From Candidatus Saccharibacteria bacterium RIFCSPHIGHO2_12_FULL_47_16b (GTDB lineage: Bacteria > Patescibacteriota > Saccharimonadia > Saccharimonadales > UBA10212): a stretch of DNA of 64,000 bases. Shown here piece by piece: positions 5,431 through 50,951 of this stretch. How positions within the stretch are numbered: position 1 is the stretch's first letter; each line of letters begins with the position of its first letter. Made by a program: the position numbers and the translations under genes. Below the pieces are notes generated by a model. It ran no database searches and was not told the DNA's origin. It saw only the letters and a program-made list of their open reading frames with translations. Where the stretch lies: NCBI GenBank assembly GCA_001790525.1, contig MGCU01000023.1, forward strand, positions 5,659 to 69,658, written 5' to 3'.

Positions 5431-5504
5431 TGGCTTCGGGACTTGGACTCGAACCAAGATTGCTGGGACCAAAACCCAGTGTCCTACCATTAGACGATCC
5501 CGAA
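5431..5504 (-). tRNA. tRNA-Gln (anticodon UUG)
   Basis: Hand-folded cloverleaf: acceptor TTCGGGA/TCCCGAA, anticodon loop TTTTGGT, T-arm CTTGG-TTCGAGT-CCAAG, discriminator G plus encoded CCA. Confidence 0.75.
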
Positions 5505-5546
5505 TTATTTTAATGCTGGGCAAGCAAAACCCTGTGCCTTATTTTA

Positions 5547-5613
5547 CCCCGCTTATTTTCGTGAGTAGAATAGTCTGCAACCAGATTATGGAACTTCTAA
5601 AAAATGTGCGGGG
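5547..5613. repeat. ~70-nt hairpin mini-element, copy 1 (CCCCGC...GAGTAGAATAGTCTGCAACCAGATTATGGAACTTC...GCGGGG)
   Basis: Shares a GAGTAG(T)CTGCAA(T/C)CAGATTATGGA(G/A)CTTC core and GC-rich inverted termini with copies at 43044-43111 and 44140-44208. Confidence 0.5.
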
Positions 5614-5698: not shown

Positions 5699-6652
5699 TT
5701 GTTGATAGGAATGACAAAAGCCGAGAAAAAACCGGCTGATTATATTCAGCCGCTATATATCAATGGACTTCATGGCCGCCTGCTTCGCTTGCCACCACCC
5801 AAAGGCAAGAAGCGGGAGATTATGTATATTTACGGTCATCACTCCAGCATTGAGCGTAACTTTGGCTTGGCTTTATATTTGAACCGTTATGGCGGTGTGA
5901 CGGCGCCAGATCTACCCGGTTTTGGCGGTATGGATCCTTTTTATAAGATCGGTGAAAAGCCGACGCTTGATAACCTGGCGGATTATTTAGCCAGTGTGAT
6001 TAAGCTACGCTACCGTGGCCAGCGATTTAGCCTAACGGGCTTGAGTCTCGGCTTTACTATCATTACCAGGATGTTGCAAAAATATCCTCAAATTGCCAAA
6101 CAGATAGATTACTTGGTTAGTTTTGCTGGCTTTGCTCACAAGGACGATTTCAAGTACAAGCCCCGCACTTATTGGTTCTTCCGCGGTCTAACTTGGCTAT
6201 GCTCGCATCGTCTACCGGCAGCGTTTGTAAAATACTTTATCTTGCGCGGGCCGCTGATTCGTTTGGCCTACGCCGTTCTTGAACCACTATTTGTCAAAGA
6301 AACCAACACCAAAGTACGTGGTGTTGATGAGATGGAGCGAAAAAAACGAATCGATTTTGAGGTTTATCTTTGGAAGTGCAATGACCCGCGGACTTATATA
6401 TCTGTTGCGCACACTATGTTGATGTTAGATCTGTCTGGCCAGCATATTGATAAAAAGGTTTACCATGAGGCAATCGACACCGATAGATATTTTGATAATG
6501 TCAGGGTCGAACAGCATATGCGAGCTATCTATAAGGACTTTCACTTGGTTAAAGCCGGGATGCCGGCTCATGCGCCGTCGATAATCGCTACCGCCGAAGA
6601 GGCAGCACCATTCGTTCCATCACATATAAGACGGTTGTTAAGCAAGGATTAA
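5699..6652 (+). CDS. alpha/beta hydrolase fold protein
   Basis: HGxxS-like GHHSS and nucleophile elbow LTGLSLG (GxSxG). Confidence 0.55.
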   Translation: MLIGMTKAEKKPADYIQPLYINGLHGRLLRLPPPKGKKREIMYIYGHHSSIERNFGLALYLNRYGGVTAPDLPGFGGMDPFYKIGEKPTLDNLADYLASVIKLRYRGQRFSLTGLSLGFTIITRMLQKYPQIAKQIDYLVSFAGFAHKDDFKYKPRTYWFFRGLTWLCSHRLPAAFVKYFILRGPLIRLAYAVLEPLFVKETNTKVRGVDEMERKKRIDFEVYLWKCNDPRTYISVAHTMLMLDLSGQHIDKKVYHEAIDTDRYFDNVRVEQHMRAIYKDFHLVKAGMPAHAPSIIATAEEAAPFVPSHIRRLLSKD

Positions 6653-6661
6653 AGTATACTA

Positions 6662-6831
6662 GACATGAACAGGTTCATGCATTTACAATTTACCATTTAC
6701 CATTTATCATTAATTTCCCATTTGTCATTTACCAAACAAACTGCAACTGATATCTGTAAATTGCTAAATGATAAATCATTGAGAATTGAAAAATGTGAAT
6801 TGATAATTGCGCCGACACAAGGAGGCGCGGT
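6662..6831 (+). repeat. Dispersed intergenic module (family 2), forward orientation, upstream of the glycosyltransferase gene
   Basis: TTTACCATTTACCATTTATCATTAATTTCCCATTTGTCATTTACCAAACAAACTGCA...TGTGAATTGATAATTG...GGAGGCG is near-identical to the rc of the rpsH-rplF spacer (43013-43241). Confidence 0.7.
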
Positions 6832-8079
6832 GTGAAGATCGGGTTGGTCTGTCCCTATAATATGTTCGATAGAACTGGCGGTGTCCAACAGGTTGTCCAG
6901 CACCTCCACGATGGTCTGACCAAAAAAGGTCACATCGTCAAAATTATTACCCCAAAGCCACCGGGCTTTAAAAATGAGGCGCCAGATGACTACATTATTT
7001 TAGGCTCAACCACCAATTTTACAGCCGGTTTTGGTGCCGCCGGCAACTGGGGCTTGCCTACCGATAGTAAGGAAATGGCCCAAATTTTAAAAAAAGAAAA
7101 ATTCGACGTTATTAACTTCCATGAACCCTGGGCACCGTTACTGGCCTGGCAAATGATCAGACAAACTAAAGCGGCCTTTGTGGGCACCTTTCATGCCAAC
7201 TTATTCGATAGGCCGTCAACCTCTTCCTGGGTTAATGTGTTTACACCTTACGCTCGGAATTTGGGCAAGCGTTTGCACGTTATAACCGCTGTCTCACCGG
7301 CGCCAGCTGCCCTAATGATTCAAAAAGCTCAAACTAGTTTTGAGAAAAGAATGGTTGCCGATATTAAGTACATTCCTAACGGTGTTGACCTTAATATTTA
7401 TAAACCATTCAAAAAACGCCTGCCGCTTAACGGCCCAGACACTAAAACTGTTCTTTATGTTGGCCGGCTAGACAGGCGAAAAAATGTTGAAGCTTTAATA
7501 AGAGCCTTTGCTTTAGTTGAGGCTAAAATGCCCAAGGCCTACTTAAATATCGCTGGTGAAGGTTCCAGGCGCGGTAGTCTGGATCAACTGGCTAAAACTT
7601 TAGGCATTAAAAACATTCATTTTAGCGGTTATGTTAACGAAGACGAAAAGCGACGTTTAATGGGTAATGCTGACGTTTTTTGTAGCCCCGCGATCGTTGG
7701 TGAAAGTTTTGGCATAGTCTTGATTGAAGCCATGGCAATGGGTTGTCCGGTAGTGGCTGGTAGAAATTCCGGCTACATTCATGTTTTGACCAATACCGGT
7801 AGAGTCGGCCTAGTTGATCCTAAAGCGACCGAGGACTTTGCCGAACGTTTGATGGTTATAATAAGCGACGGCAAACTAAGTAGTACGCTTCGGGCCTGGG
7901 GCTTAGCCGAAGTTAAAAAGTTTGATTACACCAAAATAATTGATCAATATGAAAAGACCTATATGGAGGCTTATATCAAGTGGCGGATAGAGCAGCATCT
8001 TAACGGTGTTAATAGCAAGAATGCAAAGAAATTCTGGAAAACTAAGCGTCGCTTTCCTTTACGACGATTCTTTAGATAG
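6832..8079 (+). CDS. GT4-family glycosyltransferase
   Basis: GT-B/GT4 architecture. EX7E-like region GESFGIVLIEAMAMGCPVV. N-terminal GGVQQVV. Confidence 0.75.
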   Translation: MKIGLVCPYNMFDRTGGVQQVVQHLHDGLTKKGHIVKIITPKPPGFKNEAPDDYIILGSTTNFTAGFGAAGNWGLPTDSKEMAQILKKEKFDVINFHEPWAPLLAWQMIRQTKAAFVGTFHANLFDRPSTSSWVNVFTPYARNLGKRLHVITAVSPAPAALMIQKAQTSFEKRMVADIKYIPNGVDLNIYKPFKKRLPLNGPDTKTVLYVGRLDRRKNVEALIRAFALVEAKMPKAYLNIAGEGSRRGSLDQLAKTLGIKNIHFSGYVNEDEKRRLMGNADVFCSPAIVGESFGIVLIEAMAMGCPVVAGRNSGYIHVLTNTGRVGLVDPKATEDFAERLMVIISDGKLSSTLRAWGLAEVKKFDYTKIIDQYEKTYMEAYIKWRIEQHLNGVNSKNAKKFWKTKRRFPLRRFFR

Positions 8080-19735: not shown

Positions 19736-19922
19736 TTTTGTCCTTTCTTAACAGCCATGACAATTAAAAAATCTTTGGCTATTTAAACCAAAGACTGTCT
19801 TAGGCGAAGCTTAATTTACCTCGGTAGCGGATTAAGTTCGGGGTTATCCGGACAGCTACTGTCTTTGGTCTTGCCCGCTATCTTAACATACTCTAGTCTA
19901 GCTAAGCAACTCTTTATTTTTT
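19736..19922 (-). promoter_or_regulatory. rplJ leader with a long-range helix (candidate L10 autoregulatory leader)
   Basis: 187-nt 5' UTR. ACCAAAGACAG...CAGTCTTTGG complementary segments about 90 nt apart, as in L10(L12)4-binding leaders. Confidence 0.35.
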
Positions 19923-23185: not shown

Positions 23186-23611
23186 TTACTCAATCTCCAC
23201 GCCCATACTTCGGGCGGTGCCGGCCACCATTTTTTTAACGGCTTCAATATCATCTGTATTCATATCATCAGCCTTAGCTTGGGCAATTTCGGTCAGCTGC
23301 GATTGGCTTAATTTTTTCTCGAGTTTGGTTTTATTTGGCTCACCAGAGCCCTTGTCTTCTTTAAGGGCTTTAAGTATCAGTTCGTCTGTTGGTGTGCCAA
23401 CCACTTGCCAAGTCATAGTTCGGTCATCATAAATCGTAATGTGGACTGTCAGATTTTGCCCCATCCGGTCCTTGGTTTGTTCGTTAAACGGATTGACAAA
23501 GTCCATCATGTTAACGCCGTATTGGCCCAAGGTTGAACCGACCGGCGGTCCAGCGTTTGCTTGTCCGCCCGGAATTTTCATTTTTAGATTAGACGCTACT
23601 TTCTTAGCCAT
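23186..23611 (-). CDS. rplK: 50S ribosomal protein L11
   Basis: L11 N-domain PPVGSTLGQYGVN. Directly upstream of rplA. Confidence 0.9.
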   Translation of the reverse strand: MAKKVASNLKMKIPGGQANAGPPVGSTLGQYGVNMMDFVNPFNEQTKDRMGQNLTVHITIYDDRTMTWQVVGTPTDELILKALKEDKGSGEPNKTKLEKKLSQSQLTEIAQAKADDMNTDDIEAVKKMVAGTARSMGVEIE

Positions 23612-23731
23612 CAGTGTCGCTCCTTTCAGTCGCTTCCAAGCTCGAAGTTCTAAACACTAGGGTTTGAAATTTAGAATTTAGAATTTGAAATTTGTTTATG
23701 ATTTCGGGTTTAGTATTCAGGGTTTTCATCT
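23612..23731 (-). repeat. Family-1 AT-rich repeat spacer upstream of rplK (TTCTAAA / TTTGAAATTTAGAATTTAGAATTTGAAATTTG)
   Basis: Tandem and inverted ATTTAGAA/TTCTAAAT motifs. Conserved AGCGACTGAAAGGAGCG leader next to the start codon. Confidence 0.55.
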
Positions 23732-24274
23732 TCACACTCGCTTTACCTGCAGGCCATCGAGCTCAACCGGCGTTTCCCGGCCGAACATATTAACTAGTAC
23801 CTTAAGTTTACCTTTCTGGGCGTCAATTTCATTGATAGCACCGTCAAAGCCTTTAAAAGGCCCGTCAATGATGTTAACCACTTCGCCAACTTGGAAATCA
23901 AACTTATGCTTAGGTTCTTCCCGGCCCATCCGCTTCATGATTTTTTCAATTTCATCTTCACCTAGAGGCGTCGGTTCAGTGCCGGTTCCAACAAAACCGG
24001 TAACGTTTGGTGTGTTGCGAACAATGTACCAAGCATCTTCGGATAGCTTCATCTCAACCAGGACATAACCTTGAAAGATGCGCTTTTCGACAACCTTTCG
24101 CTTACCGTTTTTAATCTCAATCATTTTCTCTTTTGGTACTAACACTTGGAAAATCTTATCGCCCATATCAAGCGATTCGGCCCGCTGGCGAATGCTCTCC
24201 GCCACCTTTTCTTCGTATCCAGAATAAGTGTGGATAGCATACCATTGCTTACTTGAATCGTATCGTTTATTCAC
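23732..24274 (-). CDS. nusG: transcription antiterminator NusG
   Basis: NGN domain (WYAIHTYSGYE) plus KOW domain (GPFKGFDGAI). Confidence 0.9.
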   Translation of the reverse strand: MNKRYDSSKQWYAIHTYSGYEEKVAESIRQRAESLDMGDKIFQVLVPKEKMIEIKNGKRKVVEKRIFQGYVLVEMKLSEDAWYIVRNTPNVTGFVGTGTEPTPLGEDEIEKIMKRMGREEPKHKFDFQVGEVVNIIDGPFKGFDGAINEIDAQKGKLKVLVNMFGRETPVELDGLQVKRV

Positions 24275-35560: not shown

Positions 35561-36027
35561 GAACGGACCTTAGCCTTGGCTTTAGTTGGCGTCTTGGCTT
35601 TTTTAGCAGTTATGTCAGCGGCTTTCTCAGCTTTTGACTTGCCGGGTGAAGCTGTCTGTTCTTGTTTGGCCGGCTTGATTTTTCTTAAGTCATCGACAAA
35701 TTTGACCTCTGCAAGTTGGGTAGCGTCGCCTCGACGTAAAGCGCTTTTACTAATACGGAAATAACCACTATTTCGAGCGGTCAACTTTGGCGTTAACTCC
35801 TCAACCAGTTTATGGGCGGCTTCTTTGCTAGCCAGAGCTTGGATAACCTGACGCCGGCTAGCTAAGTTGGTCGTTTTAGCTTTGGTGATTAGTTTTTCGG
35901 TATAGCTAACCACGGCTTTGGCTTTTGGCAAACTGGTCTTTAACGATTCGTTTAATATTAAGGAGTCAGCTAAAGACTTTATCAGGGCTCGTCGTTGGTC
36001 ACGTTGACGGTGAAACTTCACATACAC
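35557..36027 (-). CDS. rplQ: 50S ribosomal protein L17 with Lys/Ala-rich C-terminal tail
   Basis: L17 core plus tail KPAKQEQTASPGKSKAEKAADITAKKAKTPTKAKAKVRS. Confidence 0.85.
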   Translation of the reverse strand: MYVKFHRQRDQRRALIKSLADSLILNESLKTSLPKAKAVVSYTEKLITKAKTTNLASRRQVIQALASKEAAHKLVEELTPKLTARNSGYFRISKSALRRGDATQLAEVKFVDDLRKIKPAKQEQTASPGKSKAEKAADITAKKAKTPTKAKAKVRS

Positions 36028-36184
36028 CTCCGGTGCTCGGTTTTCAGTTTACCGTTTACAGTCTTCAGTAAGTTGACAGTTTTCAATTTACAGTTATTCA
36101 GTGTTGCTACATTGATCATTGATAACTGATTGTTCATTGTGAATTGTGAATTGTAAATTGTAAATTGGAATGACGCAGTCATGA
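36028..36184 (-). repeat. Family-2 intergenic module between rpoA and rplQ
   Basis: GAATGACGCAGTCATGACTAG palindrome spanning the rpoA stop. (GAATTGT)/(AAATTGT) and CATTGA tandems. CACCTCCGGTGCTC SD hairpin next to the rplQ start. Confidence 0.6.
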
Positions 36185-37126
36185 CTAGAGCTCCAGGCTA
36201 GCTAGTTTCTCCTTAACCTCTTCCAGGGCCTTATTGCCAAAACCTTTTAGGTCACGCAGTTCGGCTTCGCTCAAAGATATTAAGTCCTTAATGGTATGAA
36301 TGTCATTGTTGATTAAGGCATTGGTGGTTCTGGCACTAAGGTTAAGATCTTCGATGGTAGTCATTAGTTCGGCCGGCTCTTCGCCCTCGGCGCTGACCTC
36401 GCTTATCTCTTCCGGCAAAATTGAACCAGCTTCGACGCGAGTTTGACCCGCTAAAGCCGTGTACTGGTTAACTAAAATGGCAGCGGCTTCTTCAAATGCT
36501 TCACGAGGCGTAATTGTGCCGTCTGTATTGATGGTGATAAGTAATTTATCGAGATCAGTCATTTGGCCGACACGGGTATTTTCCACCTTATAGCGAACCC
36601 TTAAGACCGGCGAGAATAGGGCGTCCATCAATATTAGATCGGTTGCCTTTTTGGTTGAGCCTTGTTCATCAAGCACGCGATAGCCGCGGCCGGCCTCAAC
36701 CATAATCTCGGCATTGAAAGTAGCTTTAGCATCGTCGATAGTGCAAATTAAATGGTCTGGGTTAACTACTTCTACGTCAGCGTTAAGTCGAATATCTTTG
36801 GCAGTTACTTTAGACTTGCCCTTTTTGGAAATTTTTAGGGTTTGCGGTTCATTGCTAAATACTTTAAATCTAATGCCTTTTAGGTTCATCATAATCGCTA
36901 CAACGTCTTCTTTAATGCCAGCTATGGTCGAGAATTCGTGGCTAACACCGTCAATTCTAAAGCCAGTCACGGCTGCACCGGAAATGCTCGATAGCAATAC
37001 TCGACGCAGGCTATTGCCAAGCGTCATACCATAGCCGGGGTGCAAAGGCTCGATGGCAAAGGTTGAACTATACGGTCCATGGTCATCGATTTTGGCTAGT
37101 GATGGGTTGTGAATATATTTAGTCAT
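36185..37126 (-). CDS. rpoA: DNA-directed RNA polymerase subunit alpha
   Basis: Alpha NTD plus CTD (HhH, KGFGNKALEEVKEKL). Confidence 0.9.
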   Translation of the reverse strand: MTKYIHNPSLAKIDDHGPYSSTFAIEPLHPGYGMTLGNSLRRVLLSSISGAAVTGFRIDGVSHEFSTIAGIKEDVVAIMMNLKGIRFKVFSNEPQTLKISKKGKSKVTAKDIRLNADVEVVNPDHLICTIDDAKATFNAEIMVEAGRGYRVLDEQGSTKKATDLILMDALFSPVLRVRYKVENTRVGQMTDLDKLLITINTDGTITPREAFEEAAAILVNQYTALAGQTRVEAGSILPEEISEVSAEGEEPAELMTTIEDLNLSARTTNALINNDIHTIKDLISLSEAELRDLKGFGNKALEEVKEKLASLEL

Positions 37127-37141
37127 ATATAAATCTCCTTG

Positions 37142-37771
37142 TTAACGTGAGTAAAACTCAATAATTAGTTGCTCTTTAATATCTGGCTCAGCGTCATCGC
37201 GGCTTGGTTGACCGCTAAGCTTTATCTTGAAGTTCTTTCTATCAACTTTCAGCCAAGCTGGAGTGGCTGAGGGTGCTGGCGAAAGCTCATCTATATTTTT
37301 GAAGTAACTGGTTGTTTTAGCAGAATCACGGAGTACTAACTCGTCACTAATGTCTAATCTGATTGATGGTATGTCTGTCCGGCGGCCATTTAACATAAAG
37401 TGGCCGTGGCTGACTAGTTGACGGGCTGCCGGCCTGGAAACAGCCAAACCAGCTCGATAGATAACATTGTCCAGCCGTCTTTCTAAAAATTCCAGTAGTT
37501 TTATGCCGGATTCACCTTTACTACGCAATGCCTCGTTTACCAACTTCACAAACTGTTTTTCTAATAACCCATAAAGCCGTTTAACTTTTTGCTTTTCCCG
37601 CAGTTGAAGGGCATATTGGCTGGGTTTTCTGGGCCGGCCACCACCACCTGGCGTCGTACCGGGAGCGGTCGTTCTTTTGACCAAGACCTTATGGGCTTTT
37701 GGATGAAGTGCATAGCCCTCGCGGCGAGACCGTTTTACGATGGAACCTAGGTCCCTAGCCATCAGGCGCAC
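37142..37771 (-). CDS. rpsD: 30S ribosomal protein S4
   Basis: S4 family with S4 RNA-binding domain. Confidence 0.9.
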   Translation of the reverse strand: MRLMARDLGSIVKRSRREGYALHPKAHKVLVKRTTAPGTTPGGGGRPRKPSQYALQLREKQKVKRLYGLLEKQFVKLVNEALRSKGESGIKLLEFLERRLDNVIYRAGLAVSRPAARQLVSHGHFMLNGRRTDIPSIRLDISDELVLRDSAKTTSYFKNIDELSPAPSATPAWLKVDRKNFKIKLSGQPSRDDAEPDIKEQLIIEFYSR

Positions 37772-37865
37772 ATCCGGTGCTCAAAATTCAAAAACCAAAT
37801 ACCAAACATCAGAGGGTTTGAACTTTGAAATTTGAAAATTGAAGTTTGGAATGACGCAGTCATGA
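37772..37865 (-). repeat. Intergenic module between rpsK and rpsD (GAATGACGCAGTCATGACTAG palindrome plus TTTGAAATTTGAAAATTGAAGTTTGG repeats plus GAGCACCGGATGTGC SD hairpin)
   Basis: Same terminal modules as at 36028-36184, with a family-1-like AT-rich core. Confidence 0.55.
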
Positions 37866-38321
37866 CTAGTTCCTTTTAGCCTTTCTTGGTCGAGTGCCGC
37901 CGTGCGGAATGCCAGTCTTATCTCTTATGGTTTCGACGGTTAGTCTCTGATTAATCAATGTCCGGATGGCCGAATCACGGCCCAAGCCAATGCCAGTGAC
38001 GATAACATCTACTTTGGCAATACCGAATGTTTTGGCGTCAGTCAGCGCTTTTTCAGTAGCCACTTGGGCGGCATAAGCTGTTCCTTTTTTCGAACCCCTA
38101 AAGCCGCTGCTGCCGGCACTAGCTGAAGCCAAAACGTTGCCTTGCTCATCGGTTACAGACACAACTGTGTTATTAAAACTTGCCAAAATATGAACTTGAC
38201 CGCGACTAACTTGACGCTTTAGCTTTTTGCGCTTGGTTACGGTCTTTGGTTTTTCGTCAGTAATTTCTGCCGTTTCAACCGGTTTTACTTGTTCACTGCT
38301 TTGACCTTCTTTAACTACCAT
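37866..38321 (-). CDS. rpsK: 30S ribosomal protein S11 (N-terminally extended)
   Basis: S11 core HILASFNNT...; ~25-aa N-terminal extension. Confidence 0.9.
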   Translation of the reverse strand: MVVKEGQSSEQVKPVETAEITDEKPKTVTKRKKLKRQVSRGQVHILASFNNTVVSVTDEQGNVLASASAGSSGFRGSKKGTAYAAQVATEKALTDAKTFGIAKVDVIVTGIGLGRDSAIRTLINQRLTVETIRDKTGIPHGGTRPRKAKRN

Positions 38322-38441: not shown

Positions 38442-38828
38442 TTATGTTTTACTCGGTGCTTTCCTAGCGGTTCCACCTACTGTTATACGCTTACCGCGAC
38501 GAGTCCGGGCGTTAGTTCTGGTGCGCTGGCCACGGGTTGGTAAATTAGCAGCGTGGCGTAAGCCACGATAAGCATTGATGTCCTTCAAGCGCTTAATATT
38601 AGCGGTTACTGTTTTATGGAGCTCACCTTCAATGGTGTAATCGCTAGTGATAACATCTTGCAGTTTTGAGATTTCGCTATCTGTCAACTTTTTTACCCTA
38701 ATAGTTGGTTCAATGTTGGCTTTATCAAGGATTTGATGGCTAATCTTTGGACCAATGCCGTAGATGTAAGTTAAAGCTACTTGAACTTGTTTTTCGTCTG
38801 GAATTACCACACCGGCTAGTCGAGCCAT
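38442..38828 (-). CDS. rpsM: 30S ribosomal protein S13
   Basis: S13 family (MARLAGVVIPDEKQVQVALTYIYGIG). Confidence 0.9.
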   Translation of the reverse strand: MARLAGVVIPDEKQVQVALTYIYGIGPKISHQILDKANIEPTIRVKKLTDSEISKLQDVITSDYTIEGELHKTVTANIKRLKDINAYRGLRHAANLPTRGQRTRTNARTRRGKRITVGGTARKAPSKT

Positions 38829-38965
38829 CAGACGTTCTCTCCGGTCGCTTCAAACCCTAAGTTCGAAGTTCTAAACTCTAAAGTTTGGTAATTGGAATTT
38901 AGGATTTGGAAATTGTTTAGAAATTCGGGTTTAGAAATTAGGTATTGGAATGTCGAAGGCATGAC
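38829..38965 (-). repeat. Family-1 AT-rich repeat spacer between rpmJ and rpsM
   Basis: TTCTAAACTCTAAAGTTTGG ... ATTTGGAAATTGTTTAGAAATTCGGGTTTAGAAATTAGG, an inverted TCTAAA/TTTAGA arrangement. Confidence 0.55.
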
Positions 38966-42454: not shown

Positions 42455-43012
42455 TTACGCCGCTGTTGCCTCCTTGCCGCTCTTACCACTTTTACGGATA
42501 ATCTGTTCACCCTCGTAGCTTATTCCCTTGCCTTTGTATGGTTCAGGCTTTTTAAAGGCTCGAATCTCGGCCGCCACCTGACCCACTTTTTGCTTGTCGG
42601 CGCCGCTGACGGTAATAATATTTTGATCAACAGATAGACTTACACCCTCCGGAATTTTATAAATAACATCATGTGATAAGCCTAGGTTCATTTTAAGGTC
42701 AGTGCCTGATAATTGGCTACGGTAACCAACTCCACTTAATTCAAGTTTTATGTCATAACCTTGGCTGACGCCGGCAATCATATTTTTAAGTAGCGAACGC
42801 ATGAGACCGTGCTTGGCTCTGGTAATCGCTGTCTCATTTTGGCGATTAACTTGCAATTGATTATCCTTAACCGTTACTGTTATGTCGGCCAGCTTGGCTT
42901 GCTTAAGTTTACCTTTTAGTCCTTCAATATAAATAAAGTCTTTATCTACGATTACAGACACGCCAGGCGGTACAGCAATTGGTTGTTTACCGATACGACT
43001 CACAGAAGGCAC
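42455..43012 (-). CDS. rplF: 50S ribosomal protein L6
   Basis: Two L6 alpha/beta repeat domains. Confidence 0.9.
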   Translation of the reverse strand: MPSVSRIGKQPIAVPPGVSVIVDKDFIYIEGLKGKLKQAKLADITVTVKDNQLQVNRQNETAITRAKHGLMRSLLKNMIAGVSQGYDIKLELSGVGYRSQLSGTDLKMNLGLSHDVIYKIPEGVSLSVDQNIITVSGADKQKVGQVAAEIRAFKKPEPYKGKGISYEGEQIIRKSGKSGKEATAA

Positions 43013-43241
43013 CTCCGGTGCTCAATTATCAATTCACAATTATCCCCACACCAAAAACTTGAAGCTCCATAATCTGATTGCAGACTACTCCGCTCAGGTT
43101 TTGGTGCAGGGTAAGCAATGCTCAATGAATTATCAATTAGCAATTTGCAACTACTGGCTGCAGTTTGTTTGATAAATGACAAATGAGAAATTAATGGTAA
43201 ATGGTAAATGGTAAATGGTAAATGGAATGATGGAGTCATGA
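43013..43241 (-). repeat. Family-2 intergenic module between rpsH and rplF, carrying a nested ~70-nt hairpin mini-element
   Basis: The rc matches the 6662-6831 element module by module (AAATGGTAAATGG tandems, CATTTGTCATTTATCAAACAAACTGCA, CAATTATCAATTCACAATTATC, GCACCGGAGGTGC) with an extra insert at 43044-43111. Confidence 0.7.
43044..43111. repeat. ~70-nt hairpin mini-element, copy 2 (inverted relative to copies 1 and 3)
   Basis: CCCCACACCAAAAAC...CATAATCTGATTGCAGACTACTCCGCTCAGG...GTTTTGGTGCAGGG. The core is the rc of GAGCGGAGTAGTCTGCAATCAGATTATG. Confidence 0.55.
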
Positions 43242-43631
43242 CTAGTAGACCTCGCAAATTAATTCGCCGCCAATACCCTTTTTTCTAGCAGCCAAGCCGC
43301 TCATGATGCCTTGGGAAGTTGATAAAACTACTATACCGCGGCCAGCTTTGATGCTTGGAATCTCCGAGGCTTTAACATAATGGCGCCGGCCTGGGCGACT
43401 GACTCGTTTAAGTTCTGTTATAAGCGGCGACTGATCTAGTCCGTAAAGGAGAATTTGCAACTCTTTTCGATCATCCACTTGATTTGCCTTAACACTCGCC
43501 AAAAAGCCACTTTGTACTAAAACTTGAGCTACATCGTGCTTGATTTTTGAATGTGGCAAATTAACTTCATTTTTGCCGGTTGCCAAGGCGTTGCGAATTC
43601 GTGCTAACATATCGGCGATTGGATCAGTCAT
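43242..43631 (-). CDS. rpsH: 30S ribosomal protein S8
   Basis: S8 family. The stop lies in the GAATGATGGAGTCATGACTAG palindrome. Confidence 0.9.
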   Translation of the reverse strand: MTDPIADMLARIRNALATGKNEVNLPHSKIKHDVAQVLVQSGFLASVKANQVDDRKELQILLYGLDQSPLITELKRVSRPGRRHYVKASEIPSIKAGRGIVVLSTSQGIMSGLAARKKGIGGELICEVY

Positions 43632-43728
43632 ACGCCACTCCTTTCAGTCGCTCTAGAAACTAGGAAATAGGAAATAGGAAATAGTGATTTTACTAATTTC
43701 TGATTACTAATTTCTAATTTCATAATCC
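43632..43728 (-). repeat. Family-3 imperfect long hairpin spacer (AACTAGGAAATAGGAAATAGGAAATAG / ACTAATTTCTGATTACTAATTTCTAATTTC)
   Basis: Homologous to 24275-24368 and 59567-59665. Confidence 0.55.
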
Positions 43729-43998
43729 TTACCAGCTGCTTTTAGTTACACCCGGTATTTCGCCTTTGGCAGCATGTTCTCTAAAAGCAATCCGGCTTAA
43801 ACCAAACTGACGCATATAACCACGGGGCCGGCCAGTTTCAGCGCAGCGGTTTTTACGACGAGTCGGCGACGAATTACGGGGTAGTTTGGCTAAGCCAGCA
43901 TAATCACCAATAGCCTTGAGCTGGGCTCTTTTAGCAGAGTATTTTTCAATCAGTTGCAAACGCTTAGCATCGCGGGCCAGATTTGATTTTTGGGCCAT
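43729..43998 (-). CDS. rpsN: 30S ribosomal protein S14 (long, non-zinc form)
   Basis: S14 family. 89 aa, no C4 cluster. Confidence 0.85.
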
Positions 43999-44236
43999 CA
44001 GGCAACTCCTTCCGTCGTTGCAATTATCAATTCACAATTATCAATTTTCAACGATTTATCAAATATCAATTTACAGATTAAAGCAGAGGTTGCAGCTAGT
44101 TTGGTAAATGGTAAATGAGAAATTAATGGTAAATGCCTGCCCCGCATCAAATCCTGAGCGGAGTAGTCTGCAATCAGATTATGCAGCATCAAGATTTGGT
44201 GCCGGGGGTAAATGGTAAATGGTAAATGGAGCAATT
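43999..44236 (-). repeat. Family-2 intergenic module between rplE and rpsN, carrying nested hairpin mini-element copy 3
   Basis: CAATTATCAATTCACAATTATCAATTTTCAACG..., (AAATGGTAAATG) tandems, and the GCAATTTCATTGC palindrome at the rplE stop. Confidence 0.6.
44140..44208. repeat. ~70-nt hairpin mini-element, copy 3
   Basis: CCCCGCATCAAATCCTGAGCGGAGTAGTCTGCAATCAGATTATGCAGCATCAAGATTTGGTGCCGGGGG. The termini are an imperfect inverted repeat. Confidence 0.55.
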
Positions 44237-44833
44237 TCATTGCGACCTCTCCTTTTCAAACGGCATGCCTAATTTCTCCAGTAAGGCCTTGGATTGCTCA
44301 ACCGATGAGCTTGATATATTGAAGGTTATTTCCAGGCCGTGTGGTATAGCTGTATCCTCGTACGTTAATTCCGGAAAAACAGTTTGATCGGCTAGTCCGA
44401 TAGTATAATTGCCCTGGCTATCAAACGATTTGTTGCTTAAACCGTGGAAGTCACGCAAGCGAGGTAGGACTAAGTTTACCAAACGATCAGCAAATTCGTA
44501 CATTCTTTGACCGCGCAGGCTTACTTTTAGACCAATTACCACACCCTGTCGAAGTTTAAATGCCGCAATCGCTTTTTTAGATAAGGTCTTAACTGGCTTT
44601 TGCCCGCTGATTTTCATGAGCGTATTTTCCGCTACATCTATCAGCTTTTTATCGTCTTTAGCTTTACCTAGGCCGACGCTAACAATAACTTTTTCTAGCC
44701 TTGGTACCTGATGAAGACTTTTAAGTCCCAGTTGGCCCTTAAGTTCAGGCGCGTACTGCTCTTTAAACAACGAGCCTAGCCTAGCTTTATAGGCCGGAGG
44801 TGCTTTTTTAGTAGTCTGTGCTTGAGCAACCAT
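44237..44833 (-). CDS. rplE: 50S ribosomal protein L5
   Basis: L5 family. Confidence 0.9.
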   Translation of the reverse strand: MVAQAQTTKKAPPAYKARLGSLFKEQYAPELKGQLGLKSLHQVPRLEKVIVSVGLGKAKDDKKLIDVAENTLMKISGQKPVKTLSKKAIAAFKLRQGVVIGLKVSLRGQRMYEFADRLVNLVLPRLRDFHGLSNKSFDSQGNYTIGLADQTVFPELTYEDTAIPHGLEITFNISSSSVEQSKALLEKLGMPFEKERSQ

Positions 44834-46253: not shown

Positions 46254-46675
46254 TAGGCCACCTCTTTAGCCAGAAATTCAGTTTGGACCGGTAATTTATG
46301 GCCAGCTAGGCGCATTGCCTCACGGGCGATCTCTTCGCTAACGCCATCCATTTCAAACAAAACCGTACCGGGTTTAACCTTGGCCACGAAAAACTCTGGG
46401 TTACCCTTACCGCTGCCCATCTTGACGTCTTGTGGTTTACGAGTAACTGGCGTATGCGGAAAGATACGAATCCAAATTGAGCCGCCGCGCTTGACATAGC
46501 GAGTCATGGCTTGTCTGGCAGACTCGATTTGACTGGCGCTTATCCTATCGGAGTCCAAACTGATAAGGCCGTATCGGCCATAAGCTAGCTCATTTATCGA
46601 AGTGGCTCGGCCGCCATGAATACGCCCTTTCCTTACTTTTCGGTACTTGGAACGTGATGGCATTAGCATACGCAC
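46253..46675 (-). CDS. rplP: 50S ribosomal protein L16
   Basis: L16 family (RGGRATSINELAYGRYGL). Confidence 0.9.
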   Translation of the reverse strand: MRMLMPSRSKYRKVRKGRIHGGRATSINELAYGRYGLISLDSDRISASQIESARQAMTRYVKRGGSIWIRIFPHTPVTRKPQDVKMGSGKGNPEFFVAKVKPGTVLFEMDGVSEEIAREAMRLAGHKLPVQTEFLAKEVA

Positions 46676-46832
46676 CTCCGGTGCTCAATTACCAATTCAC
46701 AATTTACATTTTTCAATAAGTTTTCATTTATCAATTTATAAATAGAAAATAAGTCTGCAGCCAGTTTGTTAAATGACAAATGCAAAATAAATGGTAAATG
46801 GTTAATGGAAAATGGAAAATGGAATGACGCAG
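46676..46832 (-). repeat. Family-2 intergenic module between rpsC and rplP
   Basis: GCACCTCCGGTGCTCAATTACCAATTCACAATTTAC..., (AAATGG)n tandems, and the GAATGACGCAGTCACGA palindrome variant at the rpsC TGA stop. Confidence 0.6.
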
Positions 46833-47465
46833 TCACGATAACTCCCCCCGATATATCCAAACCTTCACGCCAATTAGTCCAGCGCCTGGGTAAAGGGCGC
46901 TGGCTTTAGCAAAATCAACATCAGCTCTAATAGTATGAAGCGGCACGCTACCTTGAACTTCCTTCTCGCGTCGGCTCATCTCGGTACCGCCCAGTCGGCC
47001 GGAGACTTCAATCCGAACTCCTTTAGCTCCGGCGCGCATGGATGATGCCGCTGCAGCTTTGACAGCTCGCCGAAACATAATTCTTTTTTCAAGCTGATGA
47101 GCAATATTCTCAGCCACCAATTTGGCCTGCAATTCCGGTCGTTTAATCTCTTCGATGTTGACCCTAACCGGAACTTTAAAGATCTTTTCAATCGCCTGCT
47201 TTAGTTCAGTTGCGCCGGTACCGCCTCGACCTATTACTACACCAGCTTTTGCGGTCTGTAGGGTGACAGTTACAAGATTGGGCGAGCGCTCAATGTCAAT
47301 TTTACTAACAGCCGCCCGCGAGCCAAGTTTAACTTCAATCAGCTTGCGAGCAGCTAGGTCTTGCCGCAAAAACTGGGCATAATCCTTTTTAGAGGCAAAC
47401 CATTTACTGCGCCAGTCTTTAGTGAGCGGTAAACGCATGTTGATTGGGTTAACCTTCTGCCCCAT
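46833..47465 (-). CDS. rpsC: 30S ribosomal protein S3
   Basis: KH domain plus S3 C-terminal domain. Confidence 0.9.
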   Translation of the reverse strand: MGQKVNPINMRLPLTKDWRSKWFASKKDYAQFLRQDLAARKLIEVKLGSRAAVSKIDIERSPNLVTVTLQTAKAGVVIGRGGTGATELKQAIEKIFKVPVRVNIEEIKRPELQAKLVAENIAHQLEKRIMFRRAVKAAAASSMRAGAKGVRIEVSGRLGGTEMSRREKEVQGSVPLHTIRADVDFAKASALYPGAGLIGVKVWIYRGELS

Positions 47466-47586
47466 CAGACGCTCCTCCCAGTCGCTTCAAGCTCTAAACT
47501 CGAAGCTCGAAACCCTAAAATTCGGAATTTAGAACTTAGTGTTTGGGATTTGTTTAGAAATTCGGGTTTAGAAATTAGAGTTTCCA
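47466..47586 (-). repeat. Family-1 AT-rich repeat spacer between rplV and rpsC
   Basis: CTCTAAACTCGAAGCTCGAAACCCTAAAATTCGG ... ATTTGTTTAGAAATTCGGGTTTAGAAATTAG. Conserved leader AGCGACTGGGAGGAGCG next to the ATG. Confidence 0.55.
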
Positions 47587-47967
47587 TTATTTAACTTTCT
47601 TTGTATGTTCGGACGATGGCTTTTTAACAACTCTCTTTTCTCCGTCAACTAACACTTTGATGTGGCTAGTTTTATGCTGGTATGGCAAAGCTCGGCCTCG
47701 GGCCGCTGGTCGGTATCGTTTAAGACGTAAACCAGCGCCAACTGTTATTTGGCTAATGTATAGGCTATCCGGCTTGTAGTTGTGATCGTGCACGGCATTG
47801 GCTCTAGCGCTAACAATAACTTTTTTTATGGTAACGGCCGCTCGCCGAGGCGTATGCTCTAGGATGGTAATAGCGTCATTGACAGATCGGCCACGTACCA
47901 AAGAGGCCACTAGTGCGGCCTTGCGCGGACTAACTCGAGCGCTACGATATTCGGCTTTAACTGGCAT
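47587..47967 (-). CDS. rplV: 50S ribosomal protein L22
   Basis: L22 family. Confidence 0.85.
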
Positions 47968-49559: not shown

Positions 49560-50215
49560 TTACTAGCCTCCCTAACGGTGGTTTTTTGACCAAGCCAAGC
49601 ATGGATAATTTCCACGGCTTTTTTGGATAAAACAATACTGTCTGCATTTAGCACATCAAAGACTGTCAAATAATTGGCGGCTACCGCTTGGACGTTGTCC
49701 AAATTCCTGGTAGCTCTATCAACTAACTCGTCCTTTTGTGAAACTACCAATAAGACCGAGCCTTTGGTGCCGATTTTCTGTAGCAGACTAATGGTTGGCT
49801 TAACTTGGCCGCTGGAACAATCGAAAGTTTCGATAACGCTAATTTTGTCGGAATTTGCGGCTAGGCTTAGAGCTTGACGCAACGCTTGGCGTTTAGTCTT
49901 GAGACCGATTTTACGCTGATAATTTTCGTAGCCAGTTGGACCAAAGGCCACACCGCCACCCCGCCAAATCGGGTTACGTCTGGAACCAAAACGCGCCTGT
50001 CCAGTACCCTTTTGGCGCCACGGTTTACGGCCGCCGCCGCGGACTTCGCCCCGTCTTTTAGTTTTAGCCAAGTTTGTTCTACCGCTCGATTGATAAGCCA
50101 GATAAGCATCCTGTAAAAGCTGATGGTTAATGTCGGTCTGACCAAATATAGACTTATCAAGCTTGGCTTCCGTCTCGGCTTTAGTGCCAGTTTTAGTATA
50201 GGTCGGTACCGCCAT
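49556..50215 (-). CDS. rplD: 50S ribosomal protein L4
   Basis: L4 family. Confidence 0.9.
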
Positions 50216-50336
50216 CAGGCGCTCCTTCCAGTTGCTTCAAGCTCTAAGTTCGAAGTTCTAAGCTCTAAATTTTGGTATTTAAAACTTCGAGTTTGGTATT
50301 TGTTTAGAGTTTCGAGTTTAGGAATTAAAGCTTTCT
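50216..50336 (-). repeat. Family-1 AT-rich repeat spacer between rplC and rplD
   Basis: AAGCTCTAAGTTCGAAGTTCTAAGCTCTAAATTTTGG ... TTTGTTTAGAGTTTCGAGTTTAGGAATTAAAG. Confidence 0.55.
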
Positions 50337-50951
50337 TCATTTGGCCTCCTTCAATAAAACCAGGCCCTTTCTTGGACCTGGAATTGCACCGGCTACGCCA
50401 ATGAGGTTGTGCTTTGGATCAACAATGGCGATTTTGAGGTTTTTGACTGTCACTTGCTGGCCGCCCATTCGGCCAGCCATTTTTTTACCGGGGAAAATCC
50501 GCTGTGGAAACATCGAACCGATTGAGCCTGGGCGTCGGTAACTGCGGCCACCATGAGTTTTACGGCCACGGGCAAAGCCATGTCTTTTAATAACACCGGC
50601 AAAGCCTTTACCTTTGTTAACAGCCGTTGCATCTACTAAATCGCCAACCGAAAAAATATCGGCGGCCAGTTGGTCGCCGATATTAAGTTCTAGTTCAGCT
50701 TCGTCCTTAATCCGAAACTCGCGCATAATCCTGGCATTAGCCTTGGACTTTATAAGATGGCCCTCTTGGGCTCTGCCGATTTTTTTAGATTGTTCAGCGC
50801 CTAGCTGTATTGCCTGATAGCCATCTGTATCACTAGATTTGATTTGAGTAACTATATTCGGAGCGGCGGTCAGTAAGGTCACTGCGGTAGCTGCGCCCTT
50901 GTCGGAGAGCGTTGTCGTCATACCCAACTTTCTGGTAATTAGTGCTTTCAT
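50337..50951 (-). CDS. rplC: 50S ribosomal protein L3
   Basis: L3 family. Confidence 0.9.
   Translation of the reverse strand: MKALITRKLGMTTTLSDKGAATAVTLLTAAPNIVTQIKSSDTDGYQAIQLGAEQSKKIGRAQEGHLIKSKANARIMREFRIKDEAELELNIGDQLAADIFSVGDLVDATAVNKGKGFAGVIKRHGFARGRKTHGGRSYRRPGSIGSMFPQRIFPGKKMAGRMGGQQVTVKNLKIAIVDPKHNLIGVAGAIPGPRKGLVLLKEAK

Follow-up and report, generated by a model that had tools for sequence, protein, structure and literature searches.

A probably mobile hairpin repeat of about 72 nucleotides in Saccharibacteria, with copies in heptamer-array spacers and at duplicated gene ends

The stretch of DNA analyzed here, termed the window, is 64 kb in length and comes from a metagenome-assembled genome (MAG) of Saccharibacteria from Rifle groundwater. 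It contains three copies (c1-c3) of a hairpin element of 71-72 nt, one adjacent to a tRNA gene and two placed in spacers of a ribosomal-protein operon on the minus strand. The element belongs to a previously undescribed family of small mobile repeats found in many Saccharibacteria (TM7) genomes; elements of this kind (palindromic repeats resembling repetitive extragenic palindromic (REP) sequences and miniature inverted-repeat transposable elements (MITEs)) are already familiar, and it is the family that is new. A first-pass annotation of the window had reported three copies with one inverted, and all three are present, with c2 being the copy on the minus strand. The copies and their cores are located as follows.

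5543-5613, plus strand: copy c1, T-rich-stem subfamily "type B" (covariance model 68.5 bits, E 1.7e-20)
5570-5590, plus strand: core of c1, an 8-bp apical stem with a CAAC loop
43044-43115, minus strand: copy c2, type A (covariance model 92.6 bits)
43068-43088, minus strand: core of c2, GTAGTCTGCAATCAGATTATG
44136-44207, plus strand: copy c3, type A (covariance model 90.8 bits)
44163-44183, plus strand: core of c3, GTAGTCTGCAATCAGATTATG

Each copy is composed of a 4-nt 5' tail, a long imperfect hairpin, and a nearly invariant core (RYAGTCTGCAAYCAGATTRYG). Refinement of the borders by alignment with 100+ relatives defines the unpaired 4-nt tail at the 5' side and a G-run as the end. The tail is CYTG or, in c1, TTTA, and c1 continues with the stem CCCCGCTTATTTTC..., the core ATAGTCTGCAACCAGATTATG, and ...AAAAAATGTGCGGGG. 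The shared core that had been noticed earlier is well defined, with an exact core of 19-21 nt common to all three sites and the 19-28-nt pattern matching exactly three sites in the 64 kb compared with 0.00-0.02 expected from dinucleotide shuffles. The GC-rich imperfect inverted repeats do form a hairpin in every copy; the core-sense strand folds into one long hairpin (-24.6, -32.7, and -36.1 kcal/mol; z -4.3 to -6.2), and the complementary strand of each copy folds 4-9 kcal/mol worse. Assemblies made independently from this strain (L001, L002, and L004) contain the window copies as well. Copy c1 is located 39 nt upstream of the 5' end of a tRNA-Gln gene on the minus strand (5431-5504, tRNA scan) and is separated by 85 nt from an open reading frame (ORF) at 5699-6652 on the plus strand. 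Between rpsH (43242-43631) and rplF (42455-43012) the spacer is 229 nt long and holds c2 in the sense orientation of the operon mRNA; that between rplE (44237-44833) and rpsN (43729-43998) is 238 nt long and holds c3 in the antisense orientation.

The two operon spacers are filled by larger host elements, palindromes of about 170 nt built from tandem heptamers (CATTTAC.../...TAAATTG). The hosts have fixed ends, with CTAGTCATGACTGCGTCATTCC overlapping the upstream stop codon and GAGCACCGGAGGTGC holding the Shine-Dalgarno sequence of the next gene. In three other Saccharibacteria operons (S8 63-64% identical) the orthologous spacers measure only 2-115 nt and the hairpin element is absent. The host elements identified in the window are the following.

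43013-43241 (43009-43245 in a wider delimitation), minus strand: rpsH-rplF spacer, palindromic heptamer array holding c2
43999-44236, minus strand: rplE-rpsN spacer, homologous heptamer array holding c3
6662-6831, plus strand: unoccupied host, the empty-site comparison for c2
46676-46842 (46672-46842 in a wider delimitation), minus strand: rpsC-rplP spacer, unoccupied homologous heptamer array
36024-36188: unoccupied homologous heptamer array
37768-37869: further host-type element of tandem heptamers

Alignment of the five homologous hosts of about 170 nt places the hairpin in two of them, at different positions and in different orientations, with the remaining three being empty. The proposal that the rpsH-rplF copy is an insertion relative to the element at 6662-6831 is borne out by this alignment. 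Both insertions are in phase with the heptamers and leave no duplication (...ATTG^element^ATAATTG... and ...AATG^element^GTAAATG...). In c2 the junction is found in the right arm of the host (...GAGCATTG^element^ATAATTG...), and c3 is located within the GGTAAAT array of its host (...GGTAAATG^element^GTAAATGG...). The array insertions keep one orientation relative to the heptamer strand, the target being asymmetric with ...TTG^ or ...ATG^ on the 5' side. This fixed orientation accounts for c2 and c3 being mutually inverted, as they occupy different arms of a palindromic host. The three copies are probably passengers in the window, and any effect on expression would be secondary.

A second array family of about 140 nt occupies intergenic positions 23604-23743, 38825-38964, 47462-47601, and 50212-50351, and also 206-268, and consists of TTTAGAA/ATTTCTAA-type heptamers (repeat families D1-D3). 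Open frames of 56-85 codons arise from the hosts together with the element (43998-44240 and 43000-43257 on the minus strand, 6665-6835 on the plus strand). One of them, L001 2275-2517, which equals window 43998-44240, is called as an 80-aa gene by metagenome gene callers and has no Pfam match; gene calls over host and element are almost certainly spurious.

The family extends well beyond the three window copies, contrary to the case that would have spoken against the first-pass annotation, three copies in all that align no better than shuffles. A scan for the pattern RTAGTCTGCAAYCAGATTATG in one genome per species (185,579 species) gave 19 matches, 18 of which are full elements with unrelated flanks from 10 Saccharibacteria/Patescibacteria MAGs. 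The remaining match, in a Brevibacillus genome, consists of the core only and was set aside as a chance match, as was the single core-only match among viral contigs. No full-length copy outside Saccharibacteria/Patescibacteria was found in the species-genome scan. A slightly looser pattern matched at least 119 metagenome contigs, and among the listed metagenome matches nearly all cover the full length of covariance model R1 (derived from the 21 copies collected first), with scores of 40-95 bits; nhmmer gave 164 matches representing 141 distinct sequences. Copy density is 3 per 64 kb in the window and at least 10 in 616 kb of contigs from MAG JACOWW01. Close tandem pairs are limited to one (L119), and a few pairs are 0.7-1.5 kb apart. 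At L014 (2967-4349) three copies lie within 1.4 kb; a tRNA and a class-I methyltransferase gene are enclosed by an inverted pair, and the remaining copy is inside a TGGTCAA heptamer array. Rfam at gathering thresholds over the window gave no match at the element, and none was obtained at E<=10 over 43000-44260; elsewhere in the window, 19756-19886 on the minus strand matches L10_leader (RF00557) with 46.5 bits against a gathering score of 44. A search of one library of papers found none linking Saccharibacteria with small mobile repeats of this kind.

The consensus of the family is CYTG-CCCCGCACYAAAWCCTGAGCGGA-GTAGTCTGCAATCAGATTATG-GAGCTTCAAGWTTTTGGTGCTGGGG in short form and CYTG CCCCGCACYAAAWC CTGAGCGGA GTAGTCTGCAATCAGATTATG GAGCTTCAAG WTTTTGGTGC(T)GGGG in full, with a length of 71-74 nt and an apical core module of 21 nt. 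The terminal inverted repeats (CCCCGC... and ...GC(T)GGGG) form arms that pair along the whole element. Conservation of the 5' CYTG among 128 copies is 104 for C, 119 for Y, 111 for T, and 112 for G. The 5' flank displays only a bias (T, T/G, and G at -3 to -1, with the final G in 57% of copies and T/G-G as the ending in most), the 3' G-run is followed by T at +1 in 59% of copies, and flank logos show no matching ends. The architecture is modular, with an outer stem that is either A-rich or T-rich, an internal-loop region, and an apical 8-bp stem and loop carrying the core, and the conserved unpaired 5' tail makes the element directional. Three sister elements (L011 5115-5193, L106 2974-3051, and L046 1494-1570) keep the outer stem with a different inner part (...GAGGAAGAAGAAGAATATCCCTATTTCGG...), and L077 3153-3253 keeps the outer stem with a replaced apex and an extra small hairpin. 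Since the outer and inner modules are separable, the word "nested" used for the element in the first-pass annotation is supported. A reading of the core as a tRNA-like anticodon arm was rejected by inspection, the stem and loop geometry being a misfit.

The hairpin was assessed on a MAFFT alignment of 106 distinct copies using 23 base pairs. Paired cells amount to 92% compared with 81% in shuffled alignments, and cells changed on both sides number 262 compared with 86, values that none of 500 shuffles reached. Sliding the partners by 1-3 columns leaves only 33-41% paired. Pair 14:67 flips between CG (44), UA (31), and AU (10), pair 18:61 between UA (48) and AU (36), and pair 26:53 between CG (52) and UA (34). 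A block of A-U pairs is switched to U-A in 13-23 copies, about one fifth, and this defines the T-rich-stem subfamily that includes c1. Within the core, pair 2:19 covaries (UA 77, CG 23, UG 3, CA 3), all four combinations having been allowed by the search pattern. Wobble pairs are biased by strand, with 256 G·U and 46 A·C, indicating that the CYTG...GGGG strand is the one selected to fold, and this bias is equally compatible with an element acting as single-stranded DNA or as RNA.

The comparison of related operons and genomes argues that the element moves. MAG JACOWW01 (L016) has the same operon with proteins 59-83% identical to those of the window. The S8-L6 and L5-S14 spacers contain the element in the window but not in L016, where host arrays or short spacers are found, and in the S3-L16 spacer the situation is reversed, with an element in L016 (6678-6751) and only a host in the window; these empty-site comparisons are limited to distant orthologous operons, the S8 nearest to that of the window being 67% identical. 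Within JACOWW01, 6-7 copies at unrelated loci are mutual nearest relatives and 92-99% identical, and older subfamilies are common to several MAGs. A further view of the insertion event is provided by elements inside elements, in which a T-rich-stem copy is located within the apical loop of another, exactly at CAAT^C. Three such composites occur at unrelated loci.

L089 7968-8113: composite element, outer copy with the variant core GTCGGTAATCGGATT
L132 1010-1155: composite element, outer copy with the variant core GTCGGTAATCGGATT
L031 11531-11673: composite element, outer copy with a normal core

The uninterrupted target is known in these cases, so the ends are fixed exactly, CYTG is seen to be brought in with the element, and the target duplication is 0-1 nt. 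An IS91-type reading, in which CYTG would be the target, was ruled out on this ground, and the same insertions rule out a long target duplication as the product of transposition. Examination of the copy borders for target-site duplications, which had been suggested for the window copies, thus gave 0-1 nt for elements inside elements and none in heptamer arrays. Insertion is precise, oriented, and duplication-free, and it can land in a hairpin loop. The independent insertion or mobility claimed for the window copies is upheld by the differing position and orientation in the occupied hosts and by presence and absence in orthologous spacers, and the element is very probably a mobile, or recently mobile, non-autonomous repeat.

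Copies occur in all four gene arrangements, with broad distances to start and stop codons and no fixed spacing. The element was considered as an intrinsic terminator or promoter and this was discarded, since no terminator-like site is found at any copy and the 3' flank offers only the T at +1. A canonical CIRCE operator (TTAGCACTC-N9-GAGTGCTAA) is found upstream of the element at L070, L092, and L123 (dnaJ) and at L040 7594-7667 and L113 7632-7705 (dnaK). The start codon follows 14-40 nt after the element, which at these loci is part of the heat-shock gene leader; exaptation may have occurred at individual loci.

A further property was observed at related loci. For 42 of 113 copies the similarity of the two flanks is above the 95th percentile of permuted flank pairs, due in part to array context. 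At no fewer than 14 non-array loci the layout is [a b]-element-[a' b'], in which 27-58 nt are directly duplicated and border the element on each side; none of the three window copies shows such a flanking duplication. Duplication-flanked elements are found at the following positions.

L040 4846-4921; L043 1400-1474; L054 4425-4499; L093 7393-7467
L113 5596-5672; L121 2303-2377; L013 7685-7758; L018 1371-1445
L026 442-514; L072 241-314; L085 357-431; L079 3754-3827

The sequence present twice is a gene start (dnaJ at 5 loci, uvrA, a polA-like gene, fpg, and a HAD hydrolase gene), the last 7-8 codons and stop of msrA (2 loci), or a terminator hairpin. The two duplicates are 76-87% identical and never near-identical. 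Codon differences between them are 44 synonymous and 5 non-synonymous (P~4e-27, with 18.5% synonymous expected at random), and the nucleotide differences fall as 8, 4, and 44 on the three codon positions. The msrA duplicates swap TGA and TAA stops, and compensatory changes preserve the stems of the terminator duplicates. In each of the nine 5' cases an ORF of 31-44 codons begins at the displaced original start, crosses the whole of the element, and terminates -18 to +19 nt from the new one, with one ATGA overlap (L121). Only one of the three frames is open in the usual antisense orientation, which looks like selection for translational coupling across the hairpin and suggests that such built-in coupling makes intragenic insertions survivable. 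Between lineages, what the dnaJ loci and the uvrA loci have in common is limited to the flank on the gene side and the orphan, the displaced gene end. The two msrA loci are about 75% identical on both flanks and have the same junction, so the event is old in these two diverged lineages, and the orphan is still codon-like. At L070 (~1921-1990) the start of dnaJ is duplicated (ATGATTAAGCGAGATT ... ATGACTAAACGTGATT) with no element between the duplicates and an element just upstream, possibly an excision footprint. Assembly chimeras were judged unlikely as the source of the duplications, because the L070 duplication has no repeat between its copies and the same pattern is seen in separate projects as well as in GTDB MAGs.

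The three window sequences are probably copies of a non-autonomous, REP/MITE-like hairpin repeat of about 72 nt that is specific to Saccharibacteria. In the mechanism envisaged, the folded CYTG...GGGG strand would be recognized as single-stranded DNA by a trans-acting HUH-type enzyme, either a REP-associated tyrosine transposase (RAYT) or one like that of insertion sequence (IS) IS200/IS605, and this HUH (Y1) enzyme would cut and paste the element by single-strand "peel and paste"; two window copies would have landed in the heptamer hosts that bloat the operon spacers and one beside tRNA-Gln. The assignment to an HUH enzyme is tentative. Several points weigh against this interpretation. In the ~0.93 Mb surrounding 160 copies no transposase of any kind was found near the copies, neighbor-protein clustering returned only housekeeping families as recurring neighbors (dnaJ, dnaK, uvrA/ABC ATPases), and phmmer with IS608 TnpA and Escherichia coli RAYT sequences against six-frame ORFs found nothing, a weak negative. 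The element at 71-74 nt is twice the size of a REP (20-40 nt), its GTAG-like tag is internal and variable (GTAG, GCAG, ATAG, or ACAG), copies number tens per genome rather than hundreds, and the invariance of the core is due in part to loci having been collected by a core-pattern search. In diverged lineages some copies also share a position (the dnaK/dnaJ leaders behind CIRCE, and msrA), and this could reflect retention for a function. An alternative view is that the family is a structured RNA present in many copies and retained because it works in transcripts, whether as a small-RNA gene or as a cis-acting module in 5'-untranslated or intercistronic regions affecting processing, stability, or translation. 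Strong covariation and an excess of G·U over A·C, both seen here, usually mark a structured RNA, conservation is high at the unpaired nucleotides, several lineages have copies between CIRCE and the start codon of dnaK or dnaJ, and many copies are 10-40 nt from start or stop codons. However, no Rfam family matches even at E<=10, the copies have no promoter or intrinsic-terminator consensus and unconserved flanks, the folding strand between co-directional genes is antisense in 36 cases and sense in 17, the two operon copies in the window are oppositely oriented, the orthologous spacers of four other lineages lack the element, and copies are inserted inside other copies. The RNA explanation is accordingly improbable, and the small-RNA-encoding role offered as an option in the first-pass annotation is not supported. 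The other option given there, a MITE-like element, is sustained in that the copies are dispersed, inserted, and bounded by terminal inverted repeats, and fails in that there is no target duplication and no parent IS is seen. As a classical MITE the element would be a deletion derivative of a DDE-transposase IS moved by cut-and-paste into double-stranded DNA via its terminal inverted repeats, and the 72-nt size, the GC-rich repeats (CCCCGC.../...GCGGGG), the dispersed intergenic copies, and the subfamilies fit this origin. It is nonetheless very unlikely, given the 0-1 nt duplication where the ends are exact, the in-phase array insertions, the asymmetric ends with the conserved CYTG tail on one side only, a strand-specific wobble pattern unexpected for a double-stranded substrate, and the lack of any autonomous IS with matching ends in the ~0.93 Mb around the 160 copies. 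The loci with 2-3 copies enclose methyltransferase, maf, and unknown ORFs and no transposase-like ORF.

The duplicated gene ends are not explained by transposition itself, which produces 0-1 nt when the target is another copy, and this leads to a different role in which the element is a recombination-junction module. An end of the element would serve as an active DNA end or as a barrier where incoming orthologous DNA from other Saccharibacteria is joined to the chromosome, with one-ended transposition or illegitimate joining on one side and homologous recombination on the other, so that the element would spread mainly between genomes and leave displaced gene ends behind. The abutting duplications at the 14 or more loci, the almost exclusively synonymous divergence of the duplicates with their exchanged stops and compensated terminator stems, the dissimilar result of insertion into another copy, and the dnaJ and uvrA loci sharing only the gene-side flank and orphan all speak for such a junction. 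Against it, the msrA junction is the same in two lineages and old, yet the orphan remains codon-constrained, and residues particular to a lineage (A/T in dnaJ, V/I in msrA) tend to occur in both the orphan and the functional copy, which better fits in-situ duplication with later homogenizing gene flow; no donor-recipient pair was identified, and the window copies lack the pattern. A junction module is regarded as a highly improbable account of the family. The broader idea that the element marks a joint where diverged orthologous DNA was spliced in (a hairpin-ended, homology-assisted replacement), or that it is removed or bypassed so that both gene ends are used, is unlikely though less remote. 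A candidate explanation is in-situ duplication in which the orphan is continually overwritten by recombination with element-free alleles.

Saccharibacteria and other bacteria of the candidate phyla radiation (CPR) have genomes of about 1 Mb, and small mobile repeats seem to be undescribed for them. This home in a CPR phylum with tiny genomes, together with the duplicated gene ends at related loci, lifts the family above the routine. With its covariance model, the family can be used as a strain-typing marker and to recognize spurious ORF calls such as the 80-aa "genes", and it offers a way toward the enzyme responsible for its movement in a phylum where few genetic tools exist. The copies also provide naturally occurring cases for studying the tolerance of reduced genomes to hairpins inserted at gene starts and in operon spacers. 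If the duplicated gene ends, with their synonymous-only differences, result from an exchange of orthologous DNA mediated by the element, their interest would be broader.

Comparison with known repeats shows the closest similarities to those associated with single-strand hairpins. REP/REPIN sequences are likewise short imperfect palindromes, dispersed and intergenic, with a strand-specific hairpin containing mismatches, no target duplication, and family-specific subfamilies within genomes. Their GTAG-type tetranucleotide at the foot of a small stem may have a counterpart in the RYAG preceding TCTG-CAAT-CAGA; the search pattern fixed RYAG only, and most copies have GTAG at this foot of their apical stem. 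REPs can nest in larger palindromes and occur at or inside the NH2-terminal (5') ends of uvrA, polA, and other repair genes (PMC3733652). In a difference with REP/REPIN, the Saccharibacteria element is 72 nt long, has an internal and variable tag and a conserved 4-nt 5' tail, does not as a rule form close inverted doublets, and no RAYT gene flanked by copies was found in the loci examined.

IS200/IS605 elements move by single-strand "peel and paste" without target duplication, have imperfect hairpins on one strand, and insert, always in one orientation, on the 3' side of a specific short sequence. The hairpin repeat resembles these and the palindrome-associated (PATE-type) elements in its duplication-free and oriented insertion, its 5'-flank bias (TTG/ATG/TGG), and its placement in hairpin loops. 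The IS200/IS605 elements have two different subterminal hairpins, whereas here one long hairpin spans the element, and neither TnpA nor TnpB was found near the copies. Classical MITEs (Correia/NEMIS, RUP, ERIC, and Nezha) are comparable in being small, non-coding, intergenic, and bounded by terminal inverted repeats, as well as in being co-transcribed with their neighbors and having several subfamilies, but they have defined target duplications (e.g. TA) and a recognizable parent IS, neither of which is seen here. The Rickettsia palindromic elements (RPE) are also palindromic repeats of a reduced genome that can lie in the 5' part of genes and be translated; RPEs are in-frame in mature proteins, whereas here the duplicated start restores the gene and only a short upstream ORF reads the element. 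The host arrays of the window (GGTAAAT/CAATTAT type) look similar to the short tandemly repeated repetitive (STRR) heptamers of cyanobacteria. In Nostoc/Anabaena very small conserved units are reportedly inserted in hairpins and in tandem-heptamer arrays (Elhai et al. 2008), so that those small dispersed repeats would likewise be nested in heptamer hosts; they belong to a different phylum, and the Saccharibacteria unit is larger and has its own outer stem. Overall, the Saccharibacteria repeat is closer in appearance to a REP or IS200/IS605-type single-strand hairpin element than to a DDE-type MITE.

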